In this document: piece by piece, positions 36,381 through 61,061 of the stretch | How positions within the stretch are numbered: position 1 is the stretch's first letter | Layout: each line of letters starts with the position of its first letter | IMG/VR virus record: IMGVR_UViG_3300024319_000003 | Coordinates: 32,001 to 96,000 of that record | From: a virus | Reading direction: 5' to 3' (one strand) | DNA length: 64,000 bases | Made by a program: the position numbers and the translations under genes | The notes under the pieces: generated by a model | Seen by the model: the letters and a program-made list of their open reading frames with translations, nothing else | The model's database searches: none | What the model was told of the DNA's origin: nothing

Positions 36381-36386
36381 TATAAT

Positions 36387-38228: not shown

Positions 38229-38233
38229 AAGAT

Positions 38234-38662: not shown

Positions 38663-38682
38663 AATTATTTTTCTTATATTAT
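38650..38682 (+). promoter_or_regulatory. early promoter
   Basis: AGTTG-N20-TATATTAT before primase. Confidence 0.75.
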
Positions 38683-38706
38683 AAGATAATAGTTACGGAC
38701 AACTAC

Positions 38707-39630
38707 ATGGAATATTCTTTTTTATTAGGTTCTATTGAAAACCTCTTGGGTAAATCTCATAAGAGAGCTAGAGGAAACCACGCTTTTCACTGTCCATTTT
38801 GCAACCATAGAAAACCCAAGTTAGAGATAAACATGGAAACTAACGAGGAGGGACATAACCCTTGGGAGTGCTGGGTATGTCAGACAAGAGGCCGTACTAT
38901 ACGCTCATTACTAAAACAGCTAAGAACACCAAAGGAAGAAGCAGCATTAGTTCTAAAGTACCTACCTAAAGGTTCAAATATAGAATATAAACAGCTATCT
39001 ATAGTAGAGCTACCAAAAGAGTATCAACTACTATATAAAGCATCAAACACATCAGTTGTAGCTAATATAGTTAAAAACTACCTATATGAACGAGGACTTA
39101 CCGACAATGATTTTATTAAATATAGTATTGGATACTGCACAACTGGTGAGTATGGAGGACGAGTTATTTTGCCAAGTTATACTGAGTCCAATAGGCTCAA
39201 CTATTTTGTTGGAAGAAGCTATGATGGAAACTTCTTTAAATACAAAAATCCTGAAGTTTCTAAAGACATAATATTTTACGAAAACCTTATTAACTGGAAT
39301 GCTCCAATCATACTATGTGAAGGAGTGTTTGATGCAATGGCAATTAAAAGAAACGCCATACCGCTTCTTGGTAAAAGTGTATCAACTGAACTATATAAAA
39401 AAATAATAACAAGCCGTCTTACAGACATATATATCGCATTAGACGAAGATGCTCAAGACGCAGCTTTAAAAATAGCTGAAAAATTTATAGCAGCAGGATT
39501 TAAAGTTTATTTAATAGAGCTAAAAGGTAAAGACCCATCACAGTTAGGGTTTAAAAACTTTACTAAATTAGTACAGAACGCAGCAGAACTAGACTTTTCT
39601 AAAATAATGCTGCAAAAATTAAACCTATGA
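38707..39630 (+). CDS. DNA primase (Zn finger + TOPRIM)
   Basis: CPFC...WECWVC, YLYERG, CEGVFDA, ALDEDA, KDP. Confidence 0.9.
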   Translation: MEYSFLLGSIENLLGKSHKRARGNHAFHCPFCNHRKPKLEINMETNEEGHNPWECWVCQTRGRTIRSLLKQLRTPKEEAALVLKYLPKGSNIEYKQLSIVELPKEYQLLYKASNTSVVANIVKNYLYERGLTDNDFIKYSIGYCTTGEYGGRVILPSYTESNRLNYFVGRSYDGNFFKYKNPEVSKDIIFYENLINWNAPIILCEGVFDAMAIKRNAIPLLGKSVSTELYKKIITSRLTDIYIALDEDAQDAALKIAEKFIAAGFKVYLIELKGKDPSQLGFKNFTKLVQNAAELDFSKIMLQKLNL

Positions 39631-40409
39631 TAAAGCAAGGAATGAATATTCTTGAACAGAATGAAAAGAAAAGATTAGATTTTAATCCCCAACTAAAGCA
39701 GATTAATTTCTTAGATAGAAGAGTTTATAAGAGAGGCGAAGGAGTATATTACCCGTCCGTAACAACCATACTTCAGTATATGCCCAAAAACAAATTTTTT
39801 GAGTCTTGGCTCAAGGATGTTGGGCATAACGCCGATCTTATTATGAGACGAGCAGGAAAACAAGGAACACAGGTACATGAAGCATGTGAACAATTAGTTC
39901 TAGGTAAAGAAGTTACCTGGATGGATGATTACGGCAATGCAAAATACTCTCAAATAGTTTGGGAAATGATATTAAAGTTTGCTGATTTCTGGAGAACACA
40001 TAAGCCGGAATTAATATCTGCTGAAGATTTTGTATGGTCAGATGAACACAAATATGCAGGAACAGCAGACTTGGTAGTAAAGATGCACGGAGAAATATGG
40101 CTACTGGATATTAAAACATCCAATTCAGTCCACAAGTCTTTTGATTTACAGCTTTCAGCTTATGCAAAAGGTTTAGAAGAAGCAAAAGGAATAAAAATAC
40201 AACGTACAGGGATAATATGGTTAAAAGCTCATTCTAGAGGTCCATCAAAACAGAAAAACGTAATACAAGGTAAAGGGTGGAAAGTATTACAAATAGATGA
40301 AATAGAGGAAAATTTTGAATTGTTTAAAATGATATATAAACTATATTCATTAGAGAACCCTAATACAGAACCTATTTATAATAGTTACCCTACAACTCTA
40401 AAATTATAA
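39627..40409 (+). CDS. PD-(D/E)XK exonuclease
   Basis: YPSVTTIL, GTQVH, YAGTADL, LLDIKTS, QLSAYA. Confidence 0.88.
   Translation: MIKQGMNILEQNEKKRLDFNPQLKQINFLDRRVYKRGEGVYYPSVTTILQYMPKNKFFESWLKDVGHNADLIMRRAGKQGTQVHEACEQLVLGKEVTWMDDYGNAKYSQIVWEMILKFADFWRTHKPELISAEDFVWSDEHKYAGTADLVVKMHGEIWLLDIKTSNSVHKSFDLQLSAYAKGLEEAKGIKIQRTGIIWLKAHSRGPSKQKNVIQGKGWKVLQIDEIEENFELFKMIYKLYSLENPNTEPIYNSYPTTLKL
40373..40380 (+). promoter_or_regulatory. putative late promoter
   Basis: TATTTATA upstream of 40413. Confidence 0.55.
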
Positions 40410-40412
40410 TGT

Positions 40413-41249
40413 ATGAAAAAGTTATTATTTTTACTAGTATTATTAACAGGATGCTCTTCTTTACAGGTAAGCACCTTAAATCACGATCCTAACTATAGCA
40501 TACAAGGATCAGATGCAGAAATAATAGTAATAGATAATGAGTTTGAACTTCAACGACTATTAAGAACAGATTTTAATTTTAGATTTGACTTTGCTCAATA
40601 TGCGTTAAGTCAACCCATATCATTTGATTGGAATAATCGTATTCTAGGTAACAGGTACAATAGGTATAATCCATACTACGGGTTAGGTTATAGTCCCTAT
40701 TGGAACAGAACTCAAATGTGGAACGATTGGGCATGGGGTATCACACCTCATAGATGGTCACCATTTGGATACGACAGATGGGGGTATAATAACTACGGTT
40801 GGAATAACTACTACGGATGGCACAATTGGAACTATTATCCTAATTATAATAGAGGATGGAATGCAACATACATGTACGGTAGAAGAAGTGTTAATATAGT
40901 TCCTTCAGGTAGAAGATTAAGACAAACTACAAGAAGAACTCAAACAGTAGACGAGATTGCAGATATAATTAAACTAGAAGTAAGAAACCGAAGAACAAAT
41001 AACACGACAGATGATAAAATTATCAACACTAATACTAGAGGACAGATCCGCACCCAAAGCAATAATAATGGCGGGAGGAGCAGGATCAGGGAAAACGTAC
41101 CTACTCAACCAATTAGGACTAGACAGCCTAGTACAATTCAACCCAGACAAGTACGTGGAGGACAAAGACCACCCGTATTACAACAAACTAGGACCAGCAG
41201 CCAATCAAACGTCCAAAGACGCAATGGCAGCAGCAGAAGAAAAAACTAG
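40413..41249 (+). CDS. lipoprotein with W/Y/N/G-rich and Arg-rich low-complexity tail
   Basis: MKKLLFLLVLLTGC lipobox; overlaps next gene by 239 nt. Confidence 0.65.
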   Translation: MKKLLFLLVLLTGCSSLQVSTLNHDPNYSIQGSDAEIIVIDNEFELQRLLRTDFNFRFDFAQYALSQPISFDWNNRILGNRYNRYNPYYGLGYSPYWNRTQMWNDWAWGITPHRWSPFGYDRWGYNNYGWNNYYGWHNWNYYPNYNRGWNATYMYGRRSVNIVPSGRRLRQTTRRTQTVDEIADIIKLEVRNRRTNNTTDDKIINTNTRGQIRTQSNNNGGRSRIRENVPTQPIRTRQPSTIQPRQVRGGQRPPVLQQTRTSSQSNVQRRNGSSRRKN

Positions 41250-41952
41250 CTTTGTTTGGGATACTACTGCATCCGGAGCAGGCTTCCAAAAAAATCTAGA
41301 TAAATTACTTGCAACAGGCTACCAGGTCTATATGGTTATGGTGTATGCTCACCCTATGATTTCTTACGTTTCTAACTTTATGGCTAGGGAAAGAAATATT
41401 CCTGGCGATTCTGTATTTGCTACCTGGAGAAATGTGTATACTAAAATAGAAGACTTTAACAGACAGTTAAAAGGTAACTTATCTATCTTTGTAAGTGATA
41501 GAGGCGGTAAATATAAAAAAGAAGTTGAAGGATTTGATAAAGCTGCTAAAAGTGGCTTAAGTGGAGTAAAAGATTATTTAGAGAAATTTAATCAAGATAA
41601 TAATGTCGGCGGCTCTTCCTTCTTTGTACCAGTAGAGATGACACCTGAAGAAGAGCAACAATTTATAAAAGATGTTGGTAGTATAGATTGGGATAAAGAA
41701 AATAGATCAGAAGACAAAGCAATTAAAACTGCATTTCTAAAAGCTTACAGAAAGAACGGAGCAGGCCCAGGACAGGATAAGCTTAAAGCAGCAGTTCAAA
41801 AGTATAGAGACAGCAATATAAAAAGAAAAGGAAAAGCAGATGAAGTTCTAGATAATATTGTAGATATGATATACAATCCAACATTTCAAGAAAAATTAAA
41901 TCACTCCTCAGTAGGAGAAATAGACTCTAAAGTACAATCATTTTTAGCATGA
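41011..41952 (+). CDS. zeta-toxin-like P-loop kinase, putative head cargo
   Basis: MAGGAGSGKT, FNPDKY, VWDTT, N..RER; leader MIKLSTLILE. Confidence 0.8.
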   Translation: MIKLSTLILEDRSAPKAIIMAGGAGSGKTYLLNQLGLDSLVQFNPDKYVEDKDHPYYNKLGPAANQTSKDAMAAAEEKTSFVWDTTASGAGFQKNLDKLLATGYQVYMVMVYAHPMISYVSNFMARERNIPGDSVFATWRNVYTKIEDFNRQLKGNLSIFVSDRGGKYKKEVEGFDKAAKSGLSGVKDYLEKFNQDNNVGGSSFFVPVEMTPEEEQQFIKDVGSIDWDKENRSEDKAIKTAFLKAYRKNGAGPGQDKLKAAVQKYRDSNIKRKGKADEVLDNIVDMIYNPTFQEKLNHSSVGEIDSKVQSFLA

Positions 41953-43517
41953 TAGCATTATACCCAGGCGCATATAAACCTCCTCATAGAGGACATTACA
42001 ACGTAGTAAAGTCATTATTAGACGGCTCATATAACGGTTCAATATATAATAAAGATAATTACAAAGAAACTGGTGCTTCACTTCTAGGTGGCAGCAACGG
42101 TGAAAAACCGAATATAGACAAGGTTATAGTTTTCGTAGGAGCAGGTGAGAGAAACGGTATATCTAAAGATGAATCAATGTCTATATGGAATACTTATGCT
42201 AAATACTTAGGTAATGTTGAGATAAAAGACGGAGGGAGCAACCCAATGTTTGCAGCCAAAGATTATGCACAAGCTAACCCTGAACAAGAATTCGCATCAG
42301 TAACAGGAATAAGAGGTGAGAAAGATTTTGTAGATTTAAGGAGAGTTACTACTTATAAAAACGCTCCCAATGTTAAAGGATTAGCACTCGCAGCAAAACC
42401 TGGGTCAACAATTAGAGCAACAGATTTTAGAAACAATATACTATCGGGTAACTTAGATAAGATTTTAGATTTTTTCCCTAAAGAGTTATCTAGAGAAGAA
42501 ATACTATCAATACTTACAGGTTTGAAAGATAAAATAGTAGCAGAAGTAATAAGCTCAAGTCTCAGCGGAATTATAGATGAATATTTTGCTCTTAACGAAA
42601 ATAACGAAGTAGAACAATTAGAGGTAGAAATAAATGAAGAAGCAGGTAAGAAACTAGAATTAAAAGATTATATAACATCTTTGACTGAATATATGTTAGA
42701 CCGTAAAATGAACATATTACCTTTACCGGAAATAAAAATTAAAAGGGACCCAATAGAAGCAAGTAACTTTTTCGGCAGAACTGCATATTACAGTCCATCA
42801 TTAAAAGAGATAGTACTTTTCGCAGAAGGAAGACACGATAAAGATATCGTTAGATCTTTTGCTCACGAAATGATTCACCATATTCAGAACATAGAAGGTA
42901 GGTTAGGGCGTATAGGTACTTCAAATACAAATGAAGATGAGTACTTAATGGAGATAGAAAAAGAAGCGTACCTATTAGGCAACATAACTTTCCGTAACTG
43001 GGAGGATAGTTTAAAAGGTTTAGAAGAAGGTCTCTGGGCTAATATTAATGCTAAGAAAAAGAAAGGAAAGAAAGCTTCTCATAAAAACTCAAAAGCGTAT
43101 AAAGCTGCTAAAAAAGCAGGAGACTCTTTAGAAAAGACTAAAAAGGAATCAATTGTAGGTGAAAATATTACAAAAACAGAATTAAACGCAATAGAAAAAT
43201 ACGCAGATAAACTTTTTATAAAGTTAGGGATAGATATAGAGTTTACAAAACACTTTTTGGACAGAGCTAACGATGACCGGAACGGTAAAACAATAACAGT
43301 ACCAGAACTAATTGGTATGTTTAAGAGGTTACATAGAAAACATGGTAAACCTCTTTCAAGATTAGATACGGATATTAACGCAGTAGTAAAAGATTTCAAC
43401 AATGATATTAACGTTCCTTTTGCAATTGATGTTACAGATGATGGTATAGATATGTACGCAAAGACTATAATGAGAAAGAAAGACTTCAAAACATCTACAC
43501 CGGTTTACACTATATAG
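41949..43517 (+). CDS. HIGH-motif nucleotidyltransferase fused to HEXXH module and further modules
   Basis: LYPGAYKPPHRGH, IRATDFR; FAHEMIHH..E; C-terminal FTKHFLDR domain. Confidence 0.8.
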   Translation: MIALYPGAYKPPHRGHYNVVKSLLDGSYNGSIYNKDNYKETGASLLGGSNGEKPNIDKVIVFVGAGERNGISKDESMSIWNTYAKYLGNVEIKDGGSNPMFAAKDYAQANPEQEFASVTGIRGEKDFVDLRRVTTYKNAPNVKGLALAAKPGSTIRATDFRNNILSGNLDKILDFFPKELSREEILSILTGLKDKIVAEVISSSLSGIIDEYFALNENNEVEQLEVEINEEAGKKLELKDYITSLTEYMLDRKMNILPLPEIKIKRDPIEASNFFGRTAYYSPSLKEIVLFAEGRHDKDIVRSFAHEMIHHIQNIEGRLGRIGTSNTNEDEYLMEIEKEAYLLGNITFRNWEDSLKGLEEGLWANINAKKKKGKKASHKNSKAYKAAKKAGDSLEKTKKESIVGENITKTELNAIEKYADKLFIKLGIDIEFTKHFLDRANDDRNGKTITVPELIGMFKRLHRKHGKPLSRLDTDINAVVKDFNNDINVPFAIDVTDDGIDMYAKTIMRKKDFKTSTPVYTI

Positions 43518-43531
43518 AAATAACAGTAAAC

Positions 43532-43564
43532 AGTTGGTAGTTAGAAAAAAAATTCGTATATTAA
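43532..43564 (+). promoter_or_regulatory. early promoter
   Basis: AGTTG-N20-TATATTAA plus AAAGGTT-ATG. Confidence 0.8.
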
Positions 43565-43593
43565 GAAAGAATAGTATAAACTAAAAAAAGGTT

Positions 43594-44184
43594 ATGAATA
43601 CAAGTATAATAGATTTATTAGATGCACACCCACCAACAGTAGCAGAAAAAACATCAAAGTATAAGATATATTGCGATATGGACGGAGTATTAACAGACTT
43701 CGAAAAAAGATTCTTTGATAAAGTAAATGAGGTTGGTCCTGATCACTACCCACTTAAGGACATAAAAAAAGTAATTAAGCCAAAAGATTTTGAGGCAATA
43801 TTCGGCATGACTGAATTCTGGAAATTTATAGACCAAATAGTTGGTGTATCATTCTGGGTAGGAATGGACTGGATGCCAAGAGGAAAAGAACTCTGGAGCT
43901 TTATATCTAAATACAATCCATCGCTTCTTACTTCACCATCAAGAGATAACACATCCAGATTAGGTAAAAACCTCTGGGTTAAGAATCAACTTACTCCAAA
44001 ACCTAAAGTAATATTTGCATACTCAGCATATAAACAAAACTATGCTAACCCTAATGCTATACTCATTGATGATAAAAAGTCAAACATAGAAGAGTGGAGA
44101 GCAAAAGGCGGTATAGCGTTTAGAGTTAAAGGAGGAGACATAACAGAAGCACTAAACGGTCTTAAAGAGTTAGGATATGAGTAA
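43594..44184 (+). CDS. HAD-family 5'(3')-deoxyribonucleotidase
   Basis: IYCDMDGVLTDF, LTSP, K, ILIDD. Confidence 0.88.
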   Translation: MNTSIIDLLDAHPPTVAEKTSKYKIYCDMDGVLTDFEKRFFDKVNEVGPDHYPLKDIKKVIKPKDFEAIFGMTEFWKFIDQIVGVSFWVGMDWMPRGKELWSFISKYNPSLLTSPSRDNTSRLGKNLWVKNQLTPKPKVIFAYSAYKQNYANPNAILIDDKKSNIEEWRAKGGIAFRVKGGDITEALNGLKELGYE

Positions 44185-44752
44185 TAAACTAAAAAAAGAG
44201 TTTAAAAAAGCTGATGTAGAGCGCATGAGAAATCTTATTAAAAAAGATTATACTGCATCTACTAAGTCACAGATAGGGTATAAAAAAACATACACAGTAC
44301 ATAAAGAAGGTGAAGTTTGGGAAGAAAATGGAAAACAATGGGTAATAAAGAACGGGATAAAACAAAACGTTACCAAGTTTGACGCAGCAAAAAAAGCAAT
44401 GCAGACTCCTCTTACCTGTCCTAAATGCAGCGGACCAATGAATTACTACCTGAGTAAAGAGACATATAAGAAATCAAAAATGTGTTTTAACTGTTATATG
44501 ACATATACGGAAGAGCTCAGGAAAAACGGATTATTTGAAGACTACATTAGAAGTGTTAACAAGGGTAATATTAAATACTTTATCAAAGCATTTGAGCAAA
44601 AAATTGAGCATATAAACAACTCATCTAAGCAAACATTTGTAACAGAGCAAGGAGATATAGAGGACTGGAAAAGTAATGAAACGGAAACAAAAAGAAAAAT
44701 TACTAAAGAATTACAGGAGTATATAGAATTTTTAAAACTTAAGCTAGAATAG
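44177..44752 (+). CDS. Zn-ribbon hypothetical protein
   Basis: CPKC...CFNC; GEVWEE.GKQW. Confidence 0.7.
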   Translation: MSNKLKKEFKKADVERMRNLIKKDYTASTKSQIGYKKTYTVHKEGEVWEENGKQWVIKNGIKQNVTKFDAAKKAMQTPLTCPKCSGPMNYYLSKETYKKSKMCFNCYMTYTEELRKNGLFEDYIRSVNKGNIKYFIKAFEQKIEHINNSSKQTFVTEQGDIEDWKSNETETKRKITKELQEYIEFLKLKLE

Positions 44753-44756
44753 ACTA

Positions 44757-44764
44757 TATTTATA
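44757..44764 (+). promoter_or_regulatory. putative late promoter
   Basis: Intergenic TATTTATA. Confidence 0.6.
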
Positions 44765-44795
44765 AGATATATATACAAATTCTAGCATAGTTAAT

Positions 44796-45152
44796 ATGAC
44801 ACAAAAAGATTTACTTGAATCAGTACTTAAAGAATTAGTTCACATAAAAAAGCATATGCCTAACGGTGAACTAAAAATTATGCTGAAAGACGTTAAAGGA
44901 CTGAAAGATGATATGTCGGATCTCAAGTATACATTACTAAACCCAGAAGACGGTACTATAGTTAAAACCAATCAAAACTCAGCTTTCCGTAAAAGGATGG
45001 AAGATAATGAAAAAGATTTTTTCAATAAACTTCAAGAAATACAAGATTTAAAAAAATGGAAAGATAGTGTACAGAAAGCTCTTTGGATTATATTTACAGT
45101 TCTCGCTGGTGTAGTAATTAAACTATTATCAGAAGTAATACGTATACAGTAA
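44796..45152 (+). CDS. coiled-coil protein with C-terminal TM (possible lysis protein)
   Basis: ALWIIFTVLAGVVI after coiled coil; late promoter. Confidence 0.55.
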   Translation: MTQKDLLESVLKELVHIKKHMPNGELKIMLKDVKGLKDDMSDLKYTLLNPEDGTIVKTNQNSAFRKRMEDNEKDFFNKLQEIQDLKKWKDSVQKALWIIFTVLAGVVIKLLSEVIRIQ

Positions 45153-45832
45153 TGAAACAAAGTACAGTAAGAGATATAGTTAAAGAGTCATTAAGAGATT
45201 GGTTTAAAAAAGAAAAATGGGTAAGAATATCATCTTCTGGTAACATAGCAGGAGACTGTGGTACTTCAAAGAATAAAAAAAATCCGGATAGGTGCTTGCC
45301 GAAATCAAAAGCACAGAGTTTAACAAAAGGCCAAAGAGCCGCTACTGCAGCAAAGAAAAAGAAAGCAGGAAGTAAAGGAAAGACAGTCGTGAAGAATACA
45401 AAAAAAGCAAAGGTAACAAAAGAAGATTTAACAAACCTAGTAGTAGGGATGGTAAACGAAATAAAAAACCCTCAAAACTTAATTAGCTTTGGATACGATT
45501 TAGACGCTATTGAGGACGTTGTTAACCACTTAAGAAGTAAATACAAACCTGGCGTAGATTATGAACTCCATATAGGAAGAGGAGACGATTTACCTAACGC
45601 TGTAACTATTTTGAATCCAAAACTTCATAGTGATTACGATTTGAACGATATGTTAAATTATGCACAAAGCGATGAAGATAGATACGATGCTTATACTGAC
45701 GGTAATTTAAACGAGAAGAAAGACGATAGATGTACTAGATTAGCAAAACAGAAATACGACACATGGCCATCAGCTTATGCCTCAGGAGCAGTGGTAAGAT
45801 GTAGACGAGGGGATATATGGAAAGAGAAATAA
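45152..45832 (+). CDS. three-module basic protein (DUF5872-like parts), putative head cargo
   Basis: LRDWF..EKWV...CG...CLP; WPSAYASGAVVRCR; modules after VKE, VNE, LNE. Confidence 0.6.
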   Translation: MKQSTVRDIVKESLRDWFKKEKWVRISSSGNIAGDCGTSKNKKNPDRCLPKSKAQSLTKGQRAATAAKKKKAGSKGKTVVKNTKKAKVTKEDLTNLVVGMVNEIKNPQNLISFGYDLDAIEDVVNHLRSKYKPGVDYELHIGRGDDLPNAVTILNPKLHSDYDLNDMLNYAQSDEDRYDAYTDGNLNEKKDDRCTRLAKQKYDTWPSAYASGAVVRCRRGDIWKEK

Positions 45833-45845
45833 CAGTAATATTAAA

Positions 45846-46043
45846 ATGGCACCAAAACTAAAACCAAGTTCTAAAGAATATAAAAAAGACCGTAACGGTA
45901 GAATGACCAGCAAATGGGAATGGAAGCACTATACAGTTGCAAGTACATCAACAAAGGAGCTGTTAAAGCATCTCGATAGCCCTTCTATGAAGAGAAAAAG
46001 AAAAGTAATTAGTTTGGAACTTAAAAAAAGAAATGCAATATAA
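45846..46043 (+). CDS. small basic protein
   Basis: Lys/Arg-rich ORF. Confidence 0.65.
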   Translation: MAPKLKPSSKEYKKDRNGRMTSKWEWKHYTVASTSTKELLKHLDSPSMKRKRKVISLELKKRNAI

Positions 46044-46048
46044 CTAAC

Positions 46049-46249
46049 ATGAATAGGAACGATTTAAAAGATGTAATACTTGAGGTGCTATATGAAGGTC
46101 CACACGATCCGGTAAAACCGGGTATATTAAAAAAGAGGATTGGAAAACTATCTTGTTCAAAAGTACGTAAAGAAAAAAGTAAATTAAAAGATAAAGGAAC
46201 ACATTTTGCAAAAGCATTACAGAGGTACTTAAACTACCACTGTCAGTAA
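46049..46249 (+). CDS. small basic protein, putative head cargo
   Basis: MNRNDLKDVILEVLYE leader. Confidence 0.6.
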   Translation: MNRNDLKDVILEVLYEGPHDPVKPGILKKRIGKLSCSKVRKEKSKLKDKGTHFAKALQRYLNYHCQ

Positions 46250-46311: not shown

Positions 46312-48507
46312 ATGACCTATAAAGAGCTTAAAAAACGCTTAATTAAGGTAGAAACTGCTTTAAAAGATTTGAATACAAACACAGATTTAAAGCACTCCAC
46401 TACATTTGTTAAGGAAACAACAGTTAAACTCACAACCCTTAAAGAATCCATTCTTAATAAACTCTCACTACTAAAAGAAGAAGATGGAACAGTCCGCACA
46501 GATGATGAAAGAAAAGCAGAGAAGCTTACTAAACAGGGAGTTAATGTAGACTTAGTAGATAAAATAGAAGAAAACGAAGAGAACAATGTAAACTTCTCAG
46601 TTGACGATATGAGAAGTATGATAACTCAAGTAGGTAGATCACTAACTAAATGTCTAAAAACACTAGGAGATGAAGTTGCAAGAATTAAAGCACATCGTTT
46701 AGAAGAAAATTCATTTGATATACATGTTACATATAAAGGTGAACAAGGAGAAGATGAATTTGCATTTCATATTCAAAACGGTAATCTTCATTTAGCTGAT
46801 TTTTCTTTTAACAAAAAATTAGTTGATATAGGAGTGAAACCATCCGGTGAAGCATTTATAAATCAAGATGTATTAAAAAACGAACTTATTAAACACTTTA
46901 AATCAGTTGCATCGGTAAATGAAACTAAAAATATACTAAAAGAATTTACAGACCACAGCTTTAAAGGATCAGAAGTAATAGATGATGCTAACGAAAGAGG
47001 GCCTGATATGTTCGGTAAAGGTGTATTTGCTGACTTACTTCCTAAAGGAGTAGCAAGTGAAAATGCTGCCGTAGAAGCTTTAAAAGCTCATGATAAGAGT
47101 CCTATTAAAGCTAGAATGGGAAGGTATGCACCAATGTTTGTACACGTTCAGTATCATAATTTAGAGCACGAAGGTGAAAAATACCAAATGCATCAAACAC
47201 AGTACTATAACAGTAACTTTAAAGACAAAGATCCTAACTTTAACCCTGGAGTATCTAAAATTACTTTATTTAAAGACCCAGATGGAGAAGATACTAATCT
47301 AGGTACTATAATTGTTAAGACAGATGAGTACGTTCAAGATCTTAGAAATTTACCTGGATTAGGTAAAAGAGTTAGTGAAAATTTAAACGAATTAGATGCT
47401 GATAACTCAAAAGCTTTAGTAAAGAAAGCAGTAGCAGATATTAATGGAGCAATGTTTAAGTTTAGACATTCAAATCCATTAAAGATGATCGCTGCTAAAG
47501 ATAAAGACTTAAAGGTTAAATTAGATTCAATGCATAATGCTATATTTGACTTAGAAAAAGTATTAAAAGCTAAAGATTTATTCGAAGCTACTAGAAAGGA
47601 CTTAGGAATAGGTTCATCAGTATCTAAACGTAGAGCTAAAGCAGAGCTAAAGAAACCTGGAAATGATGGTTCTAAAGTATACGGATTAGATAAAGACGGT
47701 AAGAGGGTTCATATTAAAAGCATTAATGACGTAGATAAATTTAAGAAGTTTGAATTAGATGCTGATATAGCTGAAGGTAGTATGTTAAAGGAATTTGTAG
47801 GCAAAGAATTAGAAGATAGAAACGAACCTTTATATGATGCATTAGTAGCAGGGCAAGGTAAATCAGAAACAGTAGAAGGTGAAATGCTACGAGCTATAAA
47901 TAGAATAGCTTACCGTTTCTACAATGATGGAGATAAATACTTTCAAGGGTATGGGACAGAAACTGCAGGACCTGCCCACTCATTTTTAGTTAATGCCAAT
48001 CATCCTTTAAAATCAGCAATGATTAAAGTATTAGATGAACCCTCTGGAGATAGTTCTTATGAAAGAATGCTCAAAGATGCTTTAGATATGATTTTAGATT
48101 ATATTGAATCTAGACAAGGTAAATATACTCCTAATAACGTAGGTGATATATTTGATTATGAACCTGAATTTGAAGATGATGAAGATGATTACGATGATGA
48201 TCCTTGGGGATATAATGACGAAGAAGAAGAAGATTACTACAATGAAGTAAAAGGAAAGAAACTAAAAGAGTCTACAGACCTTTATCAAGATTCTTATTTT
48301 ACATTCACAAGATATGCAGGAGGCAAAGTAAACGGACCTAGCTTACAGATTACAGTGCCGAAATTAAATGGCAGTGGTTTTGACTATATACAAATCCCCG
48401 GAAGAGAAGTAAAGAGATTTGCACAAGGTGCAGTAAAATCTGCAATGGAATTCAAAGATATAAACTACCAGGGCATAGACGACAATAAAAATAATACTAG
48501 CAAATAA
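46312..48507 (+). CDS. mosaic polyprotein, putative head-internal
   Basis: Unrelated 50-150 aa blocks separated by LKE/VNE/LNE/LFE/IAE. Confidence 0.6.
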   Translation: MTYKELKKRLIKVETALKDLNTNTDLKHSTTFVKETTVKLTTLKESILNKLSLLKEEDGTVRTDDERKAEKLTKQGVNVDLVDKIEENEENNVNFSVDDMRSMITQVGRSLTKCLKTLGDEVARIKAHRLEENSFDIHVTYKGEQGEDEFAFHIQNGNLHLADFSFNKKLVDIGVKPSGEAFINQDVLKNELIKHFKSVASVNETKNILKEFTDHSFKGSEVIDDANERGPDMFGKGVFADLLPKGVASENAAVEALKAHDKSPIKARMGRYAPMFVHVQYHNLEHEGEKYQMHQTQYYNSNFKDKDPNFNPGVSKITLFKDPDGEDTNLGTIIVKTDEYVQDLRNLPGLGKRVSENLNELDADNSKALVKKAVADINGAMFKFRHSNPLKMIAAKDKDLKVKLDSMHNAIFDLEKVLKAKDLFEATRKDLGIGSSVSKRRAKAELKKPGNDGSKVYGLDKDGKRVHIKSINDVDKFKKFELDADIAEGSMLKEFVGKELEDRNEPLYDALVAGQGKSETVEGEMLRAINRIAYRFYNDGDKYFQGYGTETAGPAHSFLVNANHPLKSAMIKVLDEPSGDSSYERMLKDALDMILDYIESRQGKYTPNNVGDIFDYEPEFEDDEDDYDDDPWGYNDEEEEDYYNEVKGKKLKESTDLYQDSYFTFTRYAGGKVNGPSLQITVPKLNGSGFDYIQIPGREVKRFAQGAVKSAMEFKDINYQGIDDNKNNTSK

Positions 48508-48510
48508 GAT

Positions 48511-50979
48511 ATGCATAAATTAGAAAAACTAATACTAGAAAGCTATGCTGAAGTTTTAAGAGAGGACAAAAAAGTGCTTCGCTTAGACGACTTAACTCCT
48601 GTAATGAGGAAAGCACTAGAAAAGAGATACGGTAAATCGGTAGATCCTGAACAGGATTTTGTTAGTGCAAACTTAGAGACATACTACTTTACTCATAAAA
48701 TTAATAAAGAAACAAACTCGGTTGATCACAAAGTATATGATCTCCCTTCTTTTCAAAGCCTATATTTCGGATACTCAGATATAATAGATGATGTAAGACA
48801 GTTAATGAACAGTGCCGATGTTAGAAGTGATAAAGCTGCAAGAGAGTTATTTGAACTGATCAAATCTAATTTTAGACAGATACAAAAATACCTCAGAACA
48901 GAAAGACCAGATCAATATGAACTTATGAAATCAACTAGGTCTTTAGAGGAGAACATATCAGCTCTAAAGGAATATAGGTTATCAATAGGGAGTAAAGAGG
49001 TAGCTAGAATAAATAAAGTAGGCCTAGACCCCGAAGACTGGACAGTAACTTTTGTAGACGGTACAGAAGAACCTTACATGAACCACTTAAGAGAAGTAAC
49101 TGATATGAATGACCCGGTTATGGTAAAGATAAGGCAAGCTAAGATGCATTCAGATAAAATGAAAAAATTAGATGCTTATTCAAAATCCCCTGAAGGTAGA
49201 GCTGCTGTAAGAACACAAGCTAGTGCAGAAAGAAAAGAACAAAAAGCTAGAGAGATAGTTCGTAAGTTAAAAATCAAAAGAGCACAAGTAGAAAGAGAAA
49301 TGGAAAACGATCCAGGTACCGAACCTCAAGGTGGTCCAGTATCAGATATGTACGGAGATCAATTAAATAAAATTGACAATGCTATTGAAAAAGCAGCAGG
49401 CATATACAATAAGAGAATGACCTACGACCAAGCAGTTGGTAAAGTTACTGAGATATTTGCTGATAGTACGTTTATTGATAAGCATAGAGATAGCGTAGTT
49501 GCTCATATAGAAGAGTTACTAGATGATATGGGAACATCAGAAGTTGCAATGGAATACCTTGGATGGTCTGAGGAAGAAGCAGAAGATGCTGACCACACTG
49601 TAAGAGCAGATGCAGCTAATAAGATTGCTAACGATCCAGCATTAGCTTCAGAGTTCCTAGATAAAGACGATATTGAAAAGATAAAAGCAGCTAACCTAAG
49701 TGAAGGTGAAGGAGATGATCATCACTACATTAAAGTAAAATTACACGATTATAAGAAAGCTATGGCTATCTTAGATCAAAACGTAGATCCAACTTATGTT
49801 AAGATGGAGGTTGTTGACAATGACGGAAACGGTAATGTTATTATCTACTTTATATTTAAACATGAAGCCGGTTTCGACGACATGTATGATGACTCAGAAA
49901 ACCCAGATTCAGAATTTTATCAAGAACCAGACGAAGATCCACAAGCATTCGTTTACGATGTAGTAATGGACTTAGGAGCTAACGATATAACTGTAGTAGA
50001 TTCTTCCACAGAGATGGATGAAATATTAAAGGAAGAAGAAAACAGCGACTCAGGAAAGCTAAATAAAATACAAACTTTTGGAGACCTACAGAAATTTATA
50101 AAACTTACTAAAACTAAAATAGTAGCAAAAAAAGTAGGTGGAGCACTAGATGCAGCAATAGGTTTTATACCTGGGATAGGAAACGTAAAAACAGGTATAG
50201 ATGTTATTAGAGCTTTAGCTAAAAAACAAGATGGTAAAACAACCAATACGTTTTTGGATAAAATGGATGTTGATGATAAAGCATCTGCAATAGTAGACGA
50301 TAAAGTTGAAGCTAACTTTATTAACTACATGCATAAAAGAATAGAAGATCAAGATGCTAATACAAAGTTACCTAGTAACTTTAATATGAACAGTTACTTT
50401 AATGACTTCTTATCAGCTGAATACGATAAGAGAACTATTGACGGAATCAATGAAGAGATAGGATCAGAAACAATTTTAGAAGATGCTACGGATATAATGT
50501 TAGAAAAATTTCCTACACTAAAAGCAGTGTTAATAAGACTTCAAACAGAAGACTTTAAAGAATTTGTTAACAAGATTGATTGGATATCACCGAGACCAAC
50601 GGAATTTAGAATTAACTTAACCAATGGACAGGATTACATTTTGAAGTGGACAGGTAAAGGCTTTGAAGCTCAGATACTGGGTAAAAGATACTTCTTAAAT
50701 AAGATAAATGAATTTCAACAAGCATTGGATAAGTTAGCAATTTTATATAAGGAAGGTCCAATGGGAGAACCAGAAGAACCAGCAGAACCAGCCCCAGAAA
50801 CAGATAGTGGATCATCAAGCGGAAGTGGCGGAGATTTTCCTGGAGAAGAAGGAGGAGGAGATTCCGGAGAAGATACCCCAGATGGAGATGATACAGCAGA
50901 TGCAGGAGAAGAAGAAGGAGCTGATTTAACAGATGAACCTGTTGATTTTGAAGAACCAGCAGAAGAACCAGAAGCATAA
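48511..50979 (+). CDS. mosaic polyprotein with acidic tail, putative head-internal
   Basis: Leader MHKLEKLILE; internal LRE/LKE/VTE/LSE/INE/ILE boundaries. Confidence 0.6.
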   Translation: MHKLEKLILESYAEVLREDKKVLRLDDLTPVMRKALEKRYGKSVDPEQDFVSANLETYYFTHKINKETNSVDHKVYDLPSFQSLYFGYSDIIDDVRQLMNSADVRSDKAARELFELIKSNFRQIQKYLRTERPDQYELMKSTRSLEENISALKEYRLSIGSKEVARINKVGLDPEDWTVTFVDGTEEPYMNHLREVTDMNDPVMVKIRQAKMHSDKMKKLDAYSKSPEGRAAVRTQASAERKEQKAREIVRKLKIKRAQVEREMENDPGTEPQGGPVSDMYGDQLNKIDNAIEKAAGIYNKRMTYDQAVGKVTEIFADSTFIDKHRDSVVAHIEELLDDMGTSEVAMEYLGWSEEEAEDADHTVRADAANKIANDPALASEFLDKDDIEKIKAANLSEGEGDDHHYIKVKLHDYKKAMAILDQNVDPTYVKMEVVDNDGNGNVIIYFIFKHEAGFDDMYDDSENPDSEFYQEPDEDPQAFVYDVVMDLGANDITVVDSSTEMDEILKEEENSDSGKLNKIQTFGDLQKFIKLTKTKIVAKKVGGALDAAIGFIPGIGNVKTGIDVIRALAKKQDGKTTNTFLDKMDVDDKASAIVDDKVEANFINYMHKRIEDQDANTKLPSNFNMNSYFNDFLSAEYDKRTIDGINEEIGSETILEDATDIMLEKFPTLKAVLIRLQTEDFKEFVNKIDWISPRPTEFRINLTNGQDYILKWTGKGFEAQILGKRYFLNKINEFQQALDKLAILYKEGPMGEPEEPAEPAPETDSGSSSGSGGDFPGEEGGGDSGEDTPDGDDTADAGEEEGADLTDEPVDFEEPAEEPEA

Positions 50980-56326: not shown

Positions 56327-57181
56327 ATGAAGATAAAACATTCAAAGTTTAAAAATACCGGCCTGATTTACGAACTATTAGTAAAGCAGATAGCAGCAGA
56401 CACTTTGTCAAAAAGTGAATCACCAGCTTTAGGTATACTCAAAGAGTTTTTTGCAGGTAGCTCTACACTAGCCAAAGAATTGAAACTTTATGAGTATATA
56501 CTTAAAAATACTAATTTAGTTGAAGTAAAAGCTGAAACAGTTTTATCAACTATCACTGAAATTTCTAGAAAGCTAAATCAAAAGGCACTAAAAGAACAGA
56601 AGTATAGATTAATCTCAGAAGTTAAGAAACATTATAATATTGAAGAGTTCTTCGGTATACAAGTTAGAGATTATAAAGCACTAGCAGCTATGTACTGTTT
56701 ATTAGAAGCACAAAATTCTAGCACATTAGTTGCACCAGAATTTTTAATTAATAATAAACTTACTATTCTAGAGCACCTAACTTCTTCTAAAGTAGATAAA
56801 GATGCAGTAAAAGATACACTTATTGAAGAGTATGCTAAATACGATAAGGATTTAAGACTACTTACATATAAAATTCTTTTAGAGAAATTTAATTCCAACT
56901 ATAAAGATTTACTACCAGAACAGAAATACATACTTAAAGAGTTTATAACCTCAGTTGACTCAACTACTAGACTTAGAAACATAGTTAATGAAGAGATAGT
57001 AAAAATTAAAGAGCTTATTAGTGAACTATCTTCTAAAGTAAAGGACGAAGTAGTAAGGATAAAATTAGAGGAAGTAGTTAAATCAATAAAGACTTTAACT
57101 AAGACAGAAAAAATTACAGATAACCACCTTGTTAATCTTATGCAATATTATGATTTGGTAAATGAGATGAAATCAGTATGA
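56327..57181 (+). CDS. conserved head-module hypothetical protein
   Basis: KIKHSKFKNTGLIYELL; between portal and protease. Confidence 0.7.
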   Translation: MKIKHSKFKNTGLIYELLVKQIAADTLSKSESPALGILKEFFAGSSTLAKELKLYEYILKNTNLVEVKAETVLSTITEISRKLNQKALKEQKYRLISEVKKHYNIEEFFGIQVRDYKALAAMYCLLEAQNSSTLVAPEFLINNKLTILEHLTSSKVDKDAVKDTLIEEYAKYDKDLRLLTYKILLEKFNSNYKDLLPEQKYILKEFITSVDSTTRLRNIVNEEIVKIKELISELSSKVKDEVVRIKLEEVVKSIKTLTKTEKITDNHLVNLMQYYDLVNEMKSV

Positions 57182-57408
57182 AAAAAAGCACAATAAGAAA
57201 AGCTATAAAAGAAGTAATAGAAGAACTTAGCACCTCAGCAGCAGTAGGAGGGTATCAAACTCCATTTGCCTTTAGTAAAAAGAAAGGTGATAATAGAGCA
57301 ACAAAGCAAGCTGAAAAGCTAGGTTTTAAAAAAGTTAAAAATAAAAAAAGACCTTATAACACTAAAATGTTTGATTACTTAGATGAAAACAATACAAGAA
57401 AAATATAA
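57178..57408 (+). CDS. small head-module protein
   Basis: IKEVIEE then STSAAVGGYQTPFAF. Confidence 0.65.
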   Translation: MKKSTIRKAIKEVIEELSTSAAVGGYQTPFAFSKKKGDNRATKQAEKLGFKKVKNKKRPYNTKMFDYLDENNTRKI

Positions 57409-59836
57409 CGCAGTTGTAGAGGGTACATTCTCTAAACAACAATTCCTTAAAGATGCTAAGAGAGAGCTATCTCAATTCCTATCTCCCTTTAACGGATTCC
57501 CAGACACAGTATCAATCCTTAAAAGTAAAGGGATTCTTTTTGAAGCTAAAAAAGAAGCTTCATTAGAGTACGAATGCCCAGTATCTCAATACTCGGTAGA
57601 GGACCTAACAAGAGGGGTAGACTTTGAATTAGAAAAAGCTGGAGTAGATTCGGCTGCTACTGTAACCAAAGAGGATAAAGATAAAGCAGAGAAAATTGCA
57701 ATCAAAAACCTTGAAAAAGATAGAATGCACTACCTTAACATACTAGCAGGAGAATCAGCAAAAGTTGATAAGCACGATAAAATGGTAGAACCAACTGATA
57801 AGAATAAAGTAGATACTTTTAACGGCATGAAAAAAGCTGATTTAAAAGAAAACTATACCAAAGAAAAGTTACTGAAAAAATTAGGTGACGCAGACGATGC
57901 TCGTATTCAAACCGGTAACGGAAAAGAATATATAATTTATAATCCTAATTCTAATAATGATGATAATGCTGCAATGTGGCATGACGATACTGTATTTGCT
58001 GTTGACCTAGATGGACAAGAAGAAGAAATAGATTATAGAGATATAGGATTAGTAATGGTAGAAGATATCAAAGAAAGTAATCAAGAAGAATCTATTGCAA
58101 ATTTTATTATAAAGTACTACTCTAACCCCAACACAGGAAAAAGTCTAATAGATGATGATATTATAGGTGACTTTTTCGCAACACACCCTGAATCAAGAGA
58201 TCAAGAACCTCAAGATGCATTAGATAATTTTCAAGAGTTCTTATCAGTAAATTACGAAATGCCTGGGGACTACATGCAAGAAGCAGAAGATTTAACACTA
58301 GAGCCTGAAGATACTGACAATCCAGATGAAACTTTAATAGCTATAGGTAGAGGATATTTAGAGGGTTTTAATAGACCTCATTCTCTAACTAACGGCGATT
58401 TAGAAATTTTAGGGAAAAAAGTAGTAGATAACCTATATAAAGGAGATCTTGAAGCAGCCAAAACACAATTTGTAGCAGAAGCTATGACTGATGATGAAAT
58501 GAAAAAGATTGCTAAGTACGGTAAAGATACAGATATGAAAGCAATTGATAAAATTTATAAATTAGGAGACAAATTTTCAACAGACTTTGACTACGACGGA
58601 ATGCTAAAAGCAGGGCTTAAACTTAAAATAAGTACTCCTTTAGATAAAATGCAAAAACTTTATGACTCTTTTGAAGATGTAAATTACCATAGAGAAAACG
58701 GACATTTAGGTAATGCTATAGACTACATACAAGATGGAGATAAAAAAGGAGCTTTAGATCACTTAAAGATGTTTAGACAAGCAGTACGTAAAACTTTAGG
58801 AGAAATGGACGAAGGAGCTGATAAGGTAAGAAAAGTAGTAGCAGAGGATAGTGATATACAGGAAAGTCGAGGAGCATTTGATTTATGCGTTCAAGGAATT
58901 CAAGATATCGCCACAGATGGAGATGTTAGCGAGAAAGATGCTGCTATGGAAATGATGATAGCAATTGCTGATAAGTATGATTTTAATCTAGCAGGATTAG
59001 AGTCTCAACTGTTCCATGGAGATGATTCAATTAACGAAGGTAGAAGAAGAAAGACTAAAGGAGGTAAAGTAGTAACTGAAAACGACTACGAAACTGGAGG
59101 ATATGTTGAGAGTATGGGACCTTTATTTGATAAAGGAGTTAATATGCTAATCAAGGCTTGGGAAGAATGGAAAATGGGTCCAATGACAGAACCAGGAATG
59201 GTAGAGTTTGCTAAAAAAGATGTATTGACATACCTAGAAACTCAATTTATGGTAGAAAATCTTGAAGAAGCTAAAGGTAAAGATCACGATGGAGATGGAG
59301 ATGTAGATGGAGATGATTATATGGCTAGTAAAGATGCTGCTATTAAAAAAGCAATGGGCAAGGAGAAGGTAGTTAAAGAAAATATTAAATCTATAATTGT
59401 TAAGGTATTAGAAGAAGGGGTAGTAAATGAAGCTGCAACAAATGCATTAGCAGATTTCTCTGAAACATACGGAGGATATGAAGGAATGAAACAATCAATT
59501 ATAAATCTTCAAGATGTTGTAACAGATATTGAAGCATACTACGATAAAACAAGAAGTAAGATTCAGAAAGTATATGACACTTTAGGTGATATTAGGAATG
59601 AAGAAGGTCTAAAAGTAGGAGGATTTTTAGCTCCTGCAATAGAGCAAGCATTTAATAAGGACTTAAGACCAGCAATTAAAGGTGGATTCACAAAAGGACT
59701 AACACAACCTAAAGTAAAAATGATATCACAGAAAGATATTGAAACACAAAATCCTCTAGGAGAAGTAGAAAAAGAAACGGTATACTCAAGACCTACAGTT
59801 AATGGAACTTTACAAGAAAATAAAAAAAGAAAATAA
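57383..59836 (+). CDS. mosaic polyprotein, putative prohead core/internal protein
   Basis: About 10 blocks bounded by [ILVM]xE; DHDGDGDVDGDD Ca-binding-like loop. Confidence 0.6.
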   Translation: MKTIQEKYNAVVEGTFSKQQFLKDAKRELSQFLSPFNGFPDTVSILKSKGILFEAKKEASLEYECPVSQYSVEDLTRGVDFELEKAGVDSAATVTKEDKDKAEKIAIKNLEKDRMHYLNILAGESAKVDKHDKMVEPTDKNKVDTFNGMKKADLKENYTKEKLLKKLGDADDARIQTGNGKEYIIYNPNSNNDDNAAMWHDDTVFAVDLDGQEEEIDYRDIGLVMVEDIKESNQEESIANFIIKYYSNPNTGKSLIDDDIIGDFFATHPESRDQEPQDALDNFQEFLSVNYEMPGDYMQEAEDLTLEPEDTDNPDETLIAIGRGYLEGFNRPHSLTNGDLEILGKKVVDNLYKGDLEAAKTQFVAEAMTDDEMKKIAKYGKDTDMKAIDKIYKLGDKFSTDFDYDGMLKAGLKLKISTPLDKMQKLYDSFEDVNYHRENGHLGNAIDYIQDGDKKGALDHLKMFRQAVRKTLGEMDEGADKVRKVVAEDSDIQESRGAFDLCVQGIQDIATDGDVSEKDAAMEMMIAIADKYDFNLAGLESQLFHGDDSINEGRRRKTKGGKVVTENDYETGGYVESMGPLFDKGVNMLIKAWEEWKMGPMTEPGMVEFAKKDVLTYLETQFMVENLEEAKGKDHDGDGDVDGDDYMASKDAAIKKAMGKEKVVKENIKSIIVKVLEEGVVNEAATNALADFSETYGGYEGMKQSIINLQDVVTDIEAYYDKTRSKIQKVYDTLGDIRNEEGLKVGGFLAPAIEQAFNKDLRPAIKGGFTKGLTQPKVKMISQKDIETQNPLGEVEKETVYSRPTVNGTLQENKKRK

Positions 59837-60482: not shown

Positions 60483-61061
60483 ATGGCACAATTACTTATA
60501 GAAGTTACATCATTTAATCCTATTCTAAGAGAATCCAAAGAAAGACCTGGAGTATACGAAGTAGAAGGAGTTATGCAAAGAGCAACTGCAAAGAATCAAA
60601 ATGGTAGAACTTATAGTAAAGCTATTTTAGAAAGAGAAACTAAGAAGTATATCTCTGAATTTGTTTCAAACGGTAATGCATTTGGAGAATTAGATCACCC
60701 TGAGTCTCCCATTGTCTCTCTAAAGAACGCTTCACACATAGTAAAAGACTTATGGTGGAAGGGAAACGACCTTATGGGACGTGTGGAACTACTAAATACA
60801 CCTTCAGGTAATATTGTAAAAGAAATAATTAAAGCAGGACACACTATAGGGATATCATCTAGAGGAACAGGCTCAGTACAACAAACAAATGAAGGAGCAT
60901 TAGAAGTGCAAGATGATTTTGAATTGGTATGTTGGGATTTTGTATCTAATCCTTCTACTCATGGAGCATTTATGAATCCTATTTCACTTAATGAAGGAAA
61001 AGGTAAGGCATCTAAGTTTATTAAGCTGGATGCAATCTTAAACGATATACTAAGAGCTTAA
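60483..61061 (+). CDS. prohead protease (gp21-like)
   Basis: KNQNGRTY, FGELDHP, SHIV, LNTPSG, GISSRGTGS, WDFVSNPS. Confidence 0.95.
   Translation: MAQLLIEVTSFNPILRESKERPGVYEVEGVMQRATAKNQNGRTYSKAILERETKKYISEFVSNGNAFGELDHPESPIVSLKNASHIVKDLWWKGNDLMGRVELLNTPSGNIVKEIIKAGHTIGISSRGTGSVQQTNEGALEVQDDFELVCWDFVSNPSTHGAFMNPISLNEGKGKASKFIKLDAILNDILRA

Follow-up and report, generated by a model that had tools for sequence, protein, structure and literature searches.

Two neighbouring genes in the head module of a marine T4-like phage of Flavobacteriia encode carrier proteins that are mosaics of modules, and the modules are delimited by the tripeptide [ILVM]-x-E. This motif is probably a prohead-protease site: a leader or anchors would take the strings of modules into the prohead, where they would be cut into separate proteins of 7-27 kDa. 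We analysed a window of 64,000 nt (one strand; coordinates are those of the window unless a locus is named), taken from bases 32001-96000 of the IMG/VR virus record IMGVR_UViG_3300024319_000003, which is 167.7 kb long and rated complete. The class I carrier polyprotein, P0001 (731 amino acids, aa), is encoded at 46312..48507 and the class II carrier polyprotein, P0002 (822 aa), at 48511..50979; both open reading frames (ORFs) are on the + strand, with 3 nt between them. A preliminary description made from the sequence had split both proteins at such tripeptides, and we found both ORFs and every tripeptide that it listed.

Homology breakpoints fall at the motif

[ILVM]-x-E is the recognition motif of T4 gp21-type prohead proteases. 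We compared the carriers with 234 metagenomic proteins, obtained from word-seeded searches (best 120 matches per search). High identity is confined to segments of the two queries; in proteins of 1000-1300 aa, for instance, 90% identity extends over 13% of the length. Several homologues match both P0001 and P0002. The preliminary description had predicted that indels among orthologues would start and stop at xE sites, and this is what we found: the homologues are not collinear, and indels begin and end at xE sites. Breakpoints cluster at about residues 203, 363, 419, 490 and 615 of P0001 and at about residues 19, 146, 190, 311, 392, 506, 651 and 758 of P0002. They lie within 4 aa of a site in 50% of cases for P0001 (p=0.006) and in 66% for P0002 (p<0.0002), versus 16% with random site positions. 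The heaviest clusters (about 203, 363 and 490 in P0001; about 19, 190, 311, 392, 506 and 651 in P0002) coincide with sites named in the preliminary description.

In an all-against-all BLAST of the 234 proteins, we found that [ILVM]xE ends exactly at the break in 14% of distinct internal high-scoring segment pair ends, versus a per-residue background of 1.9%. A tally at breaks that made no use of the motif gave L/E, V/E, I/E and M/E as the top four (P3,P1) pairs, with A/E far lower. P3 at junctions is L in 40%, V in 25%, I in 20% and M in 15%, for sites preselected as [ILVM]xE. One and the same module also follows different neighbours at exact joints (...SADMDE|ATDLNDPV, ...GRPLGE|GEGDDHHY, SLSE|GEGDDHHY, VNE|GEGDDHHY and VTE|GEGDDHHY), and in many relatives the P0002 module ending GKVTE precedes the P0001 module, as GKINE|FVGKELEDRNEPLYD. 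That P3 and P2 vary at the joints speaks for selection on the protein. Module boundaries were set with the motif as a candidate cut; the motif-free tally and the fam10 test below are independent of that choice.

The sites often come in close pairs, as had been noticed earlier. We found that inter-site gaps are bimodal, with an excess at 3-10 aa (doublets; 23.5% of gaps versus 15.5% in shuffles) and at 81-150 aa (module length). The blocks that result are 63-177 aa long and differ in composition, with isoelectric points from 4.1 to 9.6.

The motif mostly ends just before fam10 and is absent where fam10 stands alone

Module fam10 (P0001 residues 495-620) has 29 invariant columns, and its profile found 1604 cluster representatives among 1.84 billion proteins. 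Of the matches, 56 have a discernible module start and extend 7 residues or more upstream of it; in 44 of these, [ILVM]xE ends exactly one residue before fam10 (binomial p about 1e-64 versus the 1.9% background). Fam10 stands alone in the uncultured 595-kb phage LR756511, as a leaderless 131-aa ORF (locus L008, 5998-6393) that starts at the module start and is homologous to P0001 residues 496-609 with 47% identity. In other phages, stand-alone copies of the module have no such motif in front of them. Hence, the motif is a context-dependent signal and does not belong to the fold.

In many small metagenomic proteins, fam10 lies behind a leader, MDNFDLKKYLAE|GKLHKPTLNE|FIGG... (general form MDNFDLKKYLAE|GKL..LxE|), and these leader-then-fam10 proteins share the format of T4 internal proteins. 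The leader MDNFDLKKYLAE| heads many small fam10-carrying metagenomic proteins and also gp193 of Flavobacterium phage vB_FspM_immuto (MW353176), which is the closest cultured relative of the phage studied here and is called immuto below.

Junction sites are conserved and module interiors are depleted of sites

Sites at junctions were kept in 90-100% of reliably aligned homologues, both in P0001 (LKE45, LKE56, LKE211, LFE425, LKE494) and in P0002 (ILE10, LRE18, LRE195, VTE314, LSE398, MDE504, ILE657). The non-junction sites VKE35, LEE132, LDE576, LFE115, MLE665, INE734 and MGE753 were kept in 7-42%. Across 43 families, interior sites numbered 51 against 70 expected, and the depletion was greatest in common cargo (fam1, 0.4 vs 2.1; fam10, 0.9 vs 3.3; fam19, 0 vs 2.6). 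No such depletion was seen in the N-terminal anchors.

The raw number of [ILVM]xE tripeptides is at the level of composition-preserving shuffles, with 14 versus 12.9 in P0001 (z 0.36) and 16 versus 18.1 in P0002 (z -0.61), so the earlier caveat that LxE is common in acidic proteins is right for the raw count. Hence, our argument rests on the positions of sites and not on their number. Enrichment was found in putative core and scaffold ORFs: 20 versus 8.7 in ORF 56327 (z 4.9), z 2.5 in ORF 57383, and 25 versus 16.6 in ORF 61790 (z 2.5). In the carriers, a surplus of sites at joints and a deficit inside modules together make the total look like chance. The raw count would fit an account in which proteins rich in Glu and Leu simply abound in such tripeptides and the modules are only read into them. 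That account is refuted by the coincidence with breakpoints, by the contrast in conservation between junctions and interiors, and by the 44 of 56 exact fam10 junctions, and we consider it hardly credible.

Modules are shuffled within two carrier classes

By cutting the 234 proteins at supported sites and clustering the pieces, we obtained 96 module families in 140 distinct architectures, with 4-8 modules per protein in P0001 and P0002 and up to about 12 in homologues. These architectures, with their breaks at xE sites, bear out the cassette-like gain and loss of modules that had been proposed for this locus; the mosaic, motif-delimited architecture is thus shown by sequence comparison. Class I proteins (P0001-like) always have fam2 first (P0001 residues 1-204/211). 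Class II proteins (P0002-like) start with fam6 or fam9 and end with fam4, with or without an acidic tail. Modules fam0, fam1, fam8, fam10 and fam24 are common to both classes.

More than 1000 shorter class II proteins (338-450 aa) are minimal forms, their two anchors separated by little or no sequence, and the leader MHKLEKLILE is almost invariant in them. Hence, P0002 holds about 490 aa of inserted cargo. Immuto gp191 (locus L001, 9946-12471; 841 aa) begins with the N-terminal anchor of class I, continues with several cargo modules, among them a CxxC...C zinc-ribbon-like unit, and closes with the C-terminal anchor of class II; xNE| and xKE| joints run along its whole length. Hence, the two window carriers are fused or unsplit in immuto.

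A gp21-type protease, its likely substrates and leader-like starts are encoded nearby

The window encodes a Peptidase_S77 prohead protease of the T4 gp21 family (60483..61061, + strand; PF03420, E 6.5e-36). It is 38% identical to T4 gp21, its His/Ser/Asp columns are conserved, and an N-terminal LLIE is common to both proteins. T4 gp23 is cut after Glu65. In the major capsid protein (MCP) of the window, VAE57|QSSTG has a position comparable to LTE65|AEIGG of gp23 (44 versus 47 residues before the shared VQPMN motif), and pairwise alignment does not put MCP Glu57 and gp23 Glu65 in one column. A second MCP tripeptide, in MLE|NQAK, aligns with IFE|NQEK of T4 gp23.

Leader-like starts are also present. 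T4 IPII and IPIII start MKTYQEFIAE|, and IPI has ITE| at residue 19; the P0002 leader MHKLEKLILE| is 10 aa long, is near-invariant in homologues and has the format of the IPII/IPIII leader. Among the 31 ORFs at 35964-66705, 20 start with an [ILVM]xE that ends within residues 6-14, versus 20 of 155 elsewhere (p=8e-9). Capsid-targeting sequences of T4 are 10-20 residues long and are used by all T4 internal head proteins, according to papers on phage SPN3US (PMC5694885, PMC10052503).

From the gp21-family protease, the conserved junction motifs, the depleted interiors and the leader-plus-module form of the cargo, we strongly infer that cleavage takes place inside the prohead. The parts would work together as follows. 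Class I has a fixed N-terminal anchor of about 210 aa; class II starts with the 10-aa leader MHKLEKLILE and has one fixed anchor at each end, the C-terminal one with an acidic tail. Between or behind these anchors, autonomous cargo modules of 60-180 aa form a variable string, each with [ILVM]-x-E on both sides. The leader or anchors would draw the whole string into the prohead scaffolding core, and the activated gp21-like protease (60483-61061) would cut after every junction Glu, freeing the modules as 7-27 kDa proteins in the capsid. The freed pieces would be too large to leave through the shell, so they would remain with the DNA in the virion and would probably be delivered into the host. 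Recombination would move modules between both carriers, between phages, and to and from stand-alone genes, and the flanking sites would make any inserted module come free as its own protein.

Predicted structures and family searches

For structure prediction, alignments consisted of collinear full-length homologues plus one fragment family; fragment-only MAFFT alignments stacked unrelated module families together, were unusable and were replaced. The AlphaFold2 model of P0001 has a mean predicted local distance difference test score (pLDDT) of 71.7, with low-confidence segments between confident domains at residues 55-58, 84-91, 203-217, 347-361, 422-435, 485-487 and 625-651. Nine of its 14 sites lie in, or at most 2 residues from, segments with pLDDT<50, which make up 19% of the chain (p=3e-4). 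The P0002 model has a mean pLDDT of 63.4, with 31% of residues below 50; fam24 has no alignment depth and was poorly modelled. The expectation that sites lie in inter-domain linkers and not inside folds is thus upheld for P0001; in P0002, 8 of 16 sites met the same definition (p=0.13), a lack of significance due to much of the model being of low confidence.

We found no family for whole P0001 or P0002 in Pfam (E<=0.01) or PHROGs, and the precomputed Pfam annotation of the listed homologues is also empty. Representatives of the 96 modules gave sub-threshold noise in Pfam and PADLOC, and in PHROGs only families of unknown function and a weak 'cytidyltransferase' family. A Foldseek search of the PDB with the full-length models (>400 residues; single domains not folded alone) gave no match at E<=0.001. 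At the domain level, fold matches are generic: PUR repeat for the four-strand-plus-helix units of P0001, ferredoxin-like for fam1 and helical hairpin for fam0. In a wide VIA-align search, Z reached 9.4 (helical hairpins and alpha/beta units), which is inside the stated noise range of the tool. BFVD returned only uncharacterised viral proteins, an ESM Atlas search by features with two modules gave no usable match, and a PDB profile search with fam10 gave no match. The preliminary description had cast the modules as effector domains, single ones of which should hit host proteins, and this part found no support: Pfam, PADLOC and host proteins gave no match.

Beside the raw counts, several observations count against cleavage at each joint and release of functional cargo. 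The linker test is not significant for P0002. The models place several conserved junction sites in helices (ILE10, LRE18, LKE45, LRE195, LKE494). T4 gp22 is a helical substrate of the prohead protease; therefore, the helical location of a site does not exclude cleavage. Two heavy breakpoints have no conserved site: the site nearest to P0001 ~615 is 38 aa away, and MGE753, 5 aa from P0002 ~758, is kept in 15% of homologues. At both of these breakpoints, an acidic stretch begins. P0001 lacks a short leader of the T4 type; it has no site before residue 35, and its first conserved sites are LKE45 and LKE56. None of the Pfam, PADLOC, PHROGs and fold searches pointed to a recognisable function of any module, and the fold matches were generic. 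Finally, we did not find an experimental precedent for protease release of internal beads: the mapped cleavages in SPN3US all remove an N-terminal propeptide, barring the C-terminal self-cleavage of the protease (PMC10052503).

The carriers could be true mosaics whose junctions stay uncut, or of which the leader alone is cut, with the motif as a linker, helix-cap or docking sequence in intact multidomain proteins like classical polyvalent proteins. The helical sites would fit this, as would the packaging of unprocessed polyvalent proteins of the N4 vRNAP type (PMC5512222). We regard it as improbable: about 96 unrelated families converge on one three-residue ending that fits the specificity class of the gp21 homologue encoded alongside, the motif is depleted and weakly conserved inside modules, fam10 has no motif in front of it where it is alone in other phages, and fam10 occurs in small proteins behind a leader resembling T4 capsid-targeting sequences.

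A structural or DNA-packing role of the modules is a live alternative. The strings would then be cut as proposed, with pieces that are structural or core components, such as scaffold-like filler or DNA-condensing or charge-balancing internal proteins (compare the T4 core and the phiKZ inner body), and their diversity would reflect weak constraint and not an arms race. The genes lie in the head module beside core and scaffold ORFs that are rich in sites; fam0, the most frequent module, is a basic helical hairpin and other modules are strongly acidic; Pfam and PADLOC show no enzymatic or defence-related domain in the 96 module families; and the scaffold protein of immuto itself has inserted modules bounded by xE. 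Against this role stand the 140 architectures among 234 proteins and the exchange with stand-alone genes of unrelated phages, a pattern closer to that of the internal-protein loci of T4, which are hypervariable and act against host defences (PMC3012670). Moreover, the modules are folded domains with conserved sequence, as in the invariant columns of fam10. On balance, we think structural pieces rather unlikely.

Returning to released cargo, delivery of the modules into the host as effectors is plausible by analogy with T4 IPI and Alt. More broadly, and tentatively, abundant marine phages of Flavobacteriia may have a general plug-and-play cargo system, in which small proteins that are xE-flanked or leader-headed are packaged, cut free and injected, with the roughly 100 families forming an arsenal of early effectors or anti-defence proteins swapped as cassettes among phages.

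Comparison with known systems

The T4 internal proteins IPI, IPII and IPIII and Alt resemble the system described here in the protease, which is of the gp21 family (38% identity), and in the motif, a hydrophobic residue, any residue and Glu followed by the cut. Hypervariable cargo behind a conserved targeting part is likewise common to both (PMC3012670). T4 has one cargo per gene behind a 10-20-aa leader, whereas the carriers here and in relatives have up to about ten cargo modules per polypeptide, large conserved anchors, a site at each joint, and modules that move between two carrier genes.

Polyvalent proteins of phages and conjugative elements (PMC5512222) are also strings of many small domains in dozens of architectures, encoded beside virion genes, and co-delivery with DNA is proposed for both. 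Their range of 2-15 domains and highly variable architectures are found here. In P0001, P0002 and the 96 module families we detected none of the domains that mark them (MPTase, ART, kinases, ParB-like DNase, PBECR and others). Processing here would fall to the prohead protease, acting in trans between modules, and not to a peptidase domain in cis. The preliminary description had called the carriers a counterpart of polyvalent proteins, which stands for the mosaic multi-domain strings and, since the signature domains are absent, is an analogy only.

In the giant phages phiKZ, 201phi2-1 and SPN3US, proteases related to gp21 process large internal proteins of the head, cutting after Glu as is proposed here, and the head and ejection proteins have propeptides with several sites and form paralogous families (PMC5694885, PMC10052503). 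Their proteases cut at A/S/G-x-E (PMC5694885), with a small P3 in contrast to the L, V, I or M found here. Apart from the self-cleavage of the protease, the cleavages mapped in SPN3US remove an N-terminal propeptide (PMC10052503); the conserved motifs of the carriers, putative cleavage sites, lie at internal joints along the full length. Module-by-module shuffling with a site at each joint is not described for giant-phage proteins in the searchable papers. T4 gp22, gp67 and gp68 are substrates of the same protease with many L/I-x-E sites, and ORFs 56327, 57383 and 61790 are their equivalents in the window. Proteins of that type are site-dense and are degraded to small peptides, whereas the sites of P0001 and P0002 are spaced about every 60-180 aa between folded domains.

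Hence, P0001 and P0002 differ from T4 internal proteins in carrying several cargo modules, from polyvalent proteins in lacking signature domains, from giant-phage ejection proteins in their P3 class, and from scaffold and core proteins in not being site-dense. The known parts are the gp21 protease with its motif, capsid-targeting leaders, hypervariable internal proteins (PMC3012670) and mosaic polyvalent proteins (PMC5512222). Their combination, with multi-cargo strings, a site for a trans-acting protease at every joint, two carriers that exchange modules, and modules that occur alone, leader-headed or as beads, was not found in the searchable literature.

If the joints are cut, phages have a new way to evolve and deliver proteins, with a polyprotein of swappable beads versus one gene per internal protein; the beads would be freely swappable because the flanking protease sites guarantee release. 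This would link the T4 internal-protein system with the polyvalent-protein concept. It would also give a sequence rule (an anchor or leader plus an xE-flanked insert) for finding injected proteins in metagenomes, about 100 candidate early-acting proteins from a very common marine phage group, and a natural design by which T4-type capsids could be loaded with several foreign proteins. The cultured phage immuto makes the hypothesis testable.

Parts of the class I carrier

P0001 has the architecture fam2-fam3-fam8-fam10 with an additional C-terminal unit, and its confirmed sites are LKE45/56, VNE204, LKE211, VSE356, LNE360, LFE425, IAE488, LKE494, YNE645 and LKE653. All parts of both carriers are on the + strand. 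The N-terminal anchor (aa 1-211, 46312..46944), which is the first module in 121 of the 234 proteins, is a predicted helical hairpin plus a folded alpha/beta domain with conserved LKE45, LKE56 and LKE211. Cargo module fam3 (aa 212-356, 46945..47391) has no interior site, is flanked by the low-pLDDT linkers 203-217 and 347-361, and is followed by the doublet VSE356/LNE360. The cargo region fam8 (aa 361-488, 47392..47793) has the conserved internal LFE425 and is followed by the doublet IAE488/LKE494. Next is fam10 (aa 495-620, 47794..48171), the widespread module that elsewhere occurs alone or behind a short leader. An acidic linker (aa 621-653, 48172..48270) ends with YNE645 and LKE653 and has pLDDT <50 over residues 625-651. 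The C-terminal four-strand-plus-helix unit (aa 654-731, 48271..48504) has a PUR-repeat-like predicted fold, with a weak match only (8chw_A, probability 0.99, template modelling score 0.60 by target, E 0.23).

Parts of the class II carrier

P0002 has the architecture leader-fam6-fam33-fam0-fam43-fam1-fam24-fam4-fam22, with confirmed sites LRE18, LEE147, LKE154, LRE195, VTE314, LSE398, MDE504, LKE508, INE648 and ILE657. Its leader MHKLEKLILE|SYAEVLRE| (48511..48564) contains ILE10 (100% conserved) and LRE18 (91%). The N-terminal anchor (aa 19-195, 48565..49095) consists of fam6 and a short fam33 unit and ends at LRE195 (100% conserved). Cargo module fam0 (aa 196-314, 49096..49452), a basic helical hairpin ending at VTE314 (90% conserved), is the commonest module, with 227 copies, and is frequently doubled. 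The rare module fam43 (aa 315-398, 49453..49704) is acidic and helical and ends at LSE398. Module fam1 (aa 399-504, 49705..50034) starts GEGDDHHY, has a ferredoxin-like alpha/beta predicted fold and is followed by the doublet MDE504/LKE508. Module fam24 (aa 509-648, 50035..50481), the poorly modelled one, has a Gly/hydrophobic stretch and is followed by INE648/ILE657. The C-terminal anchor fam4 (aa 658-753), which is the last module in 102 of the 234 proteins, and the acidic tail fam22 (aa 754-822) together span 50482..50976 and are also present in immuto gp191.

Genome setting and neighbouring genes

G+C in the window is about 33%, and the + strand carries nearly all genes. Downstream (3') of P0002 lie, in order, a 120-aa ORF, a 466-aa ORF, the large terminase and a T4-type portal; then ORFs of 284, 76, 817 and 208 aa and the protease; then a 181-aa ORF, an acidic 344-aa scaffold-like protein (ORF 61790) and the gp23-type MCP. 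Immuto has a gene order identical to that of the window. Two metagenomic relatives keep the order class I, class II, terminase (TerL), portal and 284-aa ORF, and in them the protease is also 3' wherever the DNA reaches that far. Positional P0001 orthologues in metagenomic relatives are 729-1028 aa long; at locus L003, the class I/class II gene pair consists of 1028-aa and 762-aa ORFs. Megablast of the DNA against cultured phages gave no match, tblastn against cultured phages matched single modules only (LR756511 and immuto), and no paralogues of P0001 or P0002 were found elsewhere in the same genome.

A run of ORFs at 35964-46249, 5' of P0001, has leaders of 9-12 aa ending in [IL]-x-E (MKLRDILLKE, MKLTNIIFE, MRLSHVILGE, MIKLSTLILE and MNRNDLKDVILE), and these ORFs may encode single-cargo capsid-targeted proteins. 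The 120-aa ORF 3' of P0002 (51009-51371) starts MDNFDLRKFLAE|NKKTVIE|, the same leader as that of immuto gp193 and of the small fam10 proteins, and this looks like a second, widely used leader of the capsid-targeting type.

The 284-aa ORF (56327-57181) is the most site-dense in the genome (20 [ILVM]xE versus 8.7 expected, z 4.9), and its length is kept exactly in immuto and in the two metagenomic relatives; it is probably a degraded prohead core protein, a functional analogue of T4 gp67/gp68. The 817-aa ORF (57383-59836), between portal and protease and followed by the 208-aa ORF (59836-60462), has 26 [ILVM]xE versus 17.1 expected (z 2.5). Its start, MKTIQE|KYNAVVE|, resembles the T4 IPII/IPIII leader, its immuto counterpart has 360 aa only, and it may be a third cargo carrier.

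Directly 3' of the protease, the 181-aa ORF (61061-61606) starts MKLASIILE|, continues with Ala/Gly-rich hydrophobic stretches and is unusually site-poor (1 versus 3.3 expected); it may encode a membrane-active or pore-forming internal protein. Immuto gp203 (locus L001, 21566-22807), annotated as 'DNA polymerase phi-like', is a homologue of the acidic scaffold ORF 61790, and the annotation is probably an artefact because the sequence is acidic and of low complexity. Gp203 contains a tandem duplicated insert of about 60 aa (GFEQWLDSVSAQMDKFGKNNPTIQAIEKAV...), each copy of which is bounded by xE sites.

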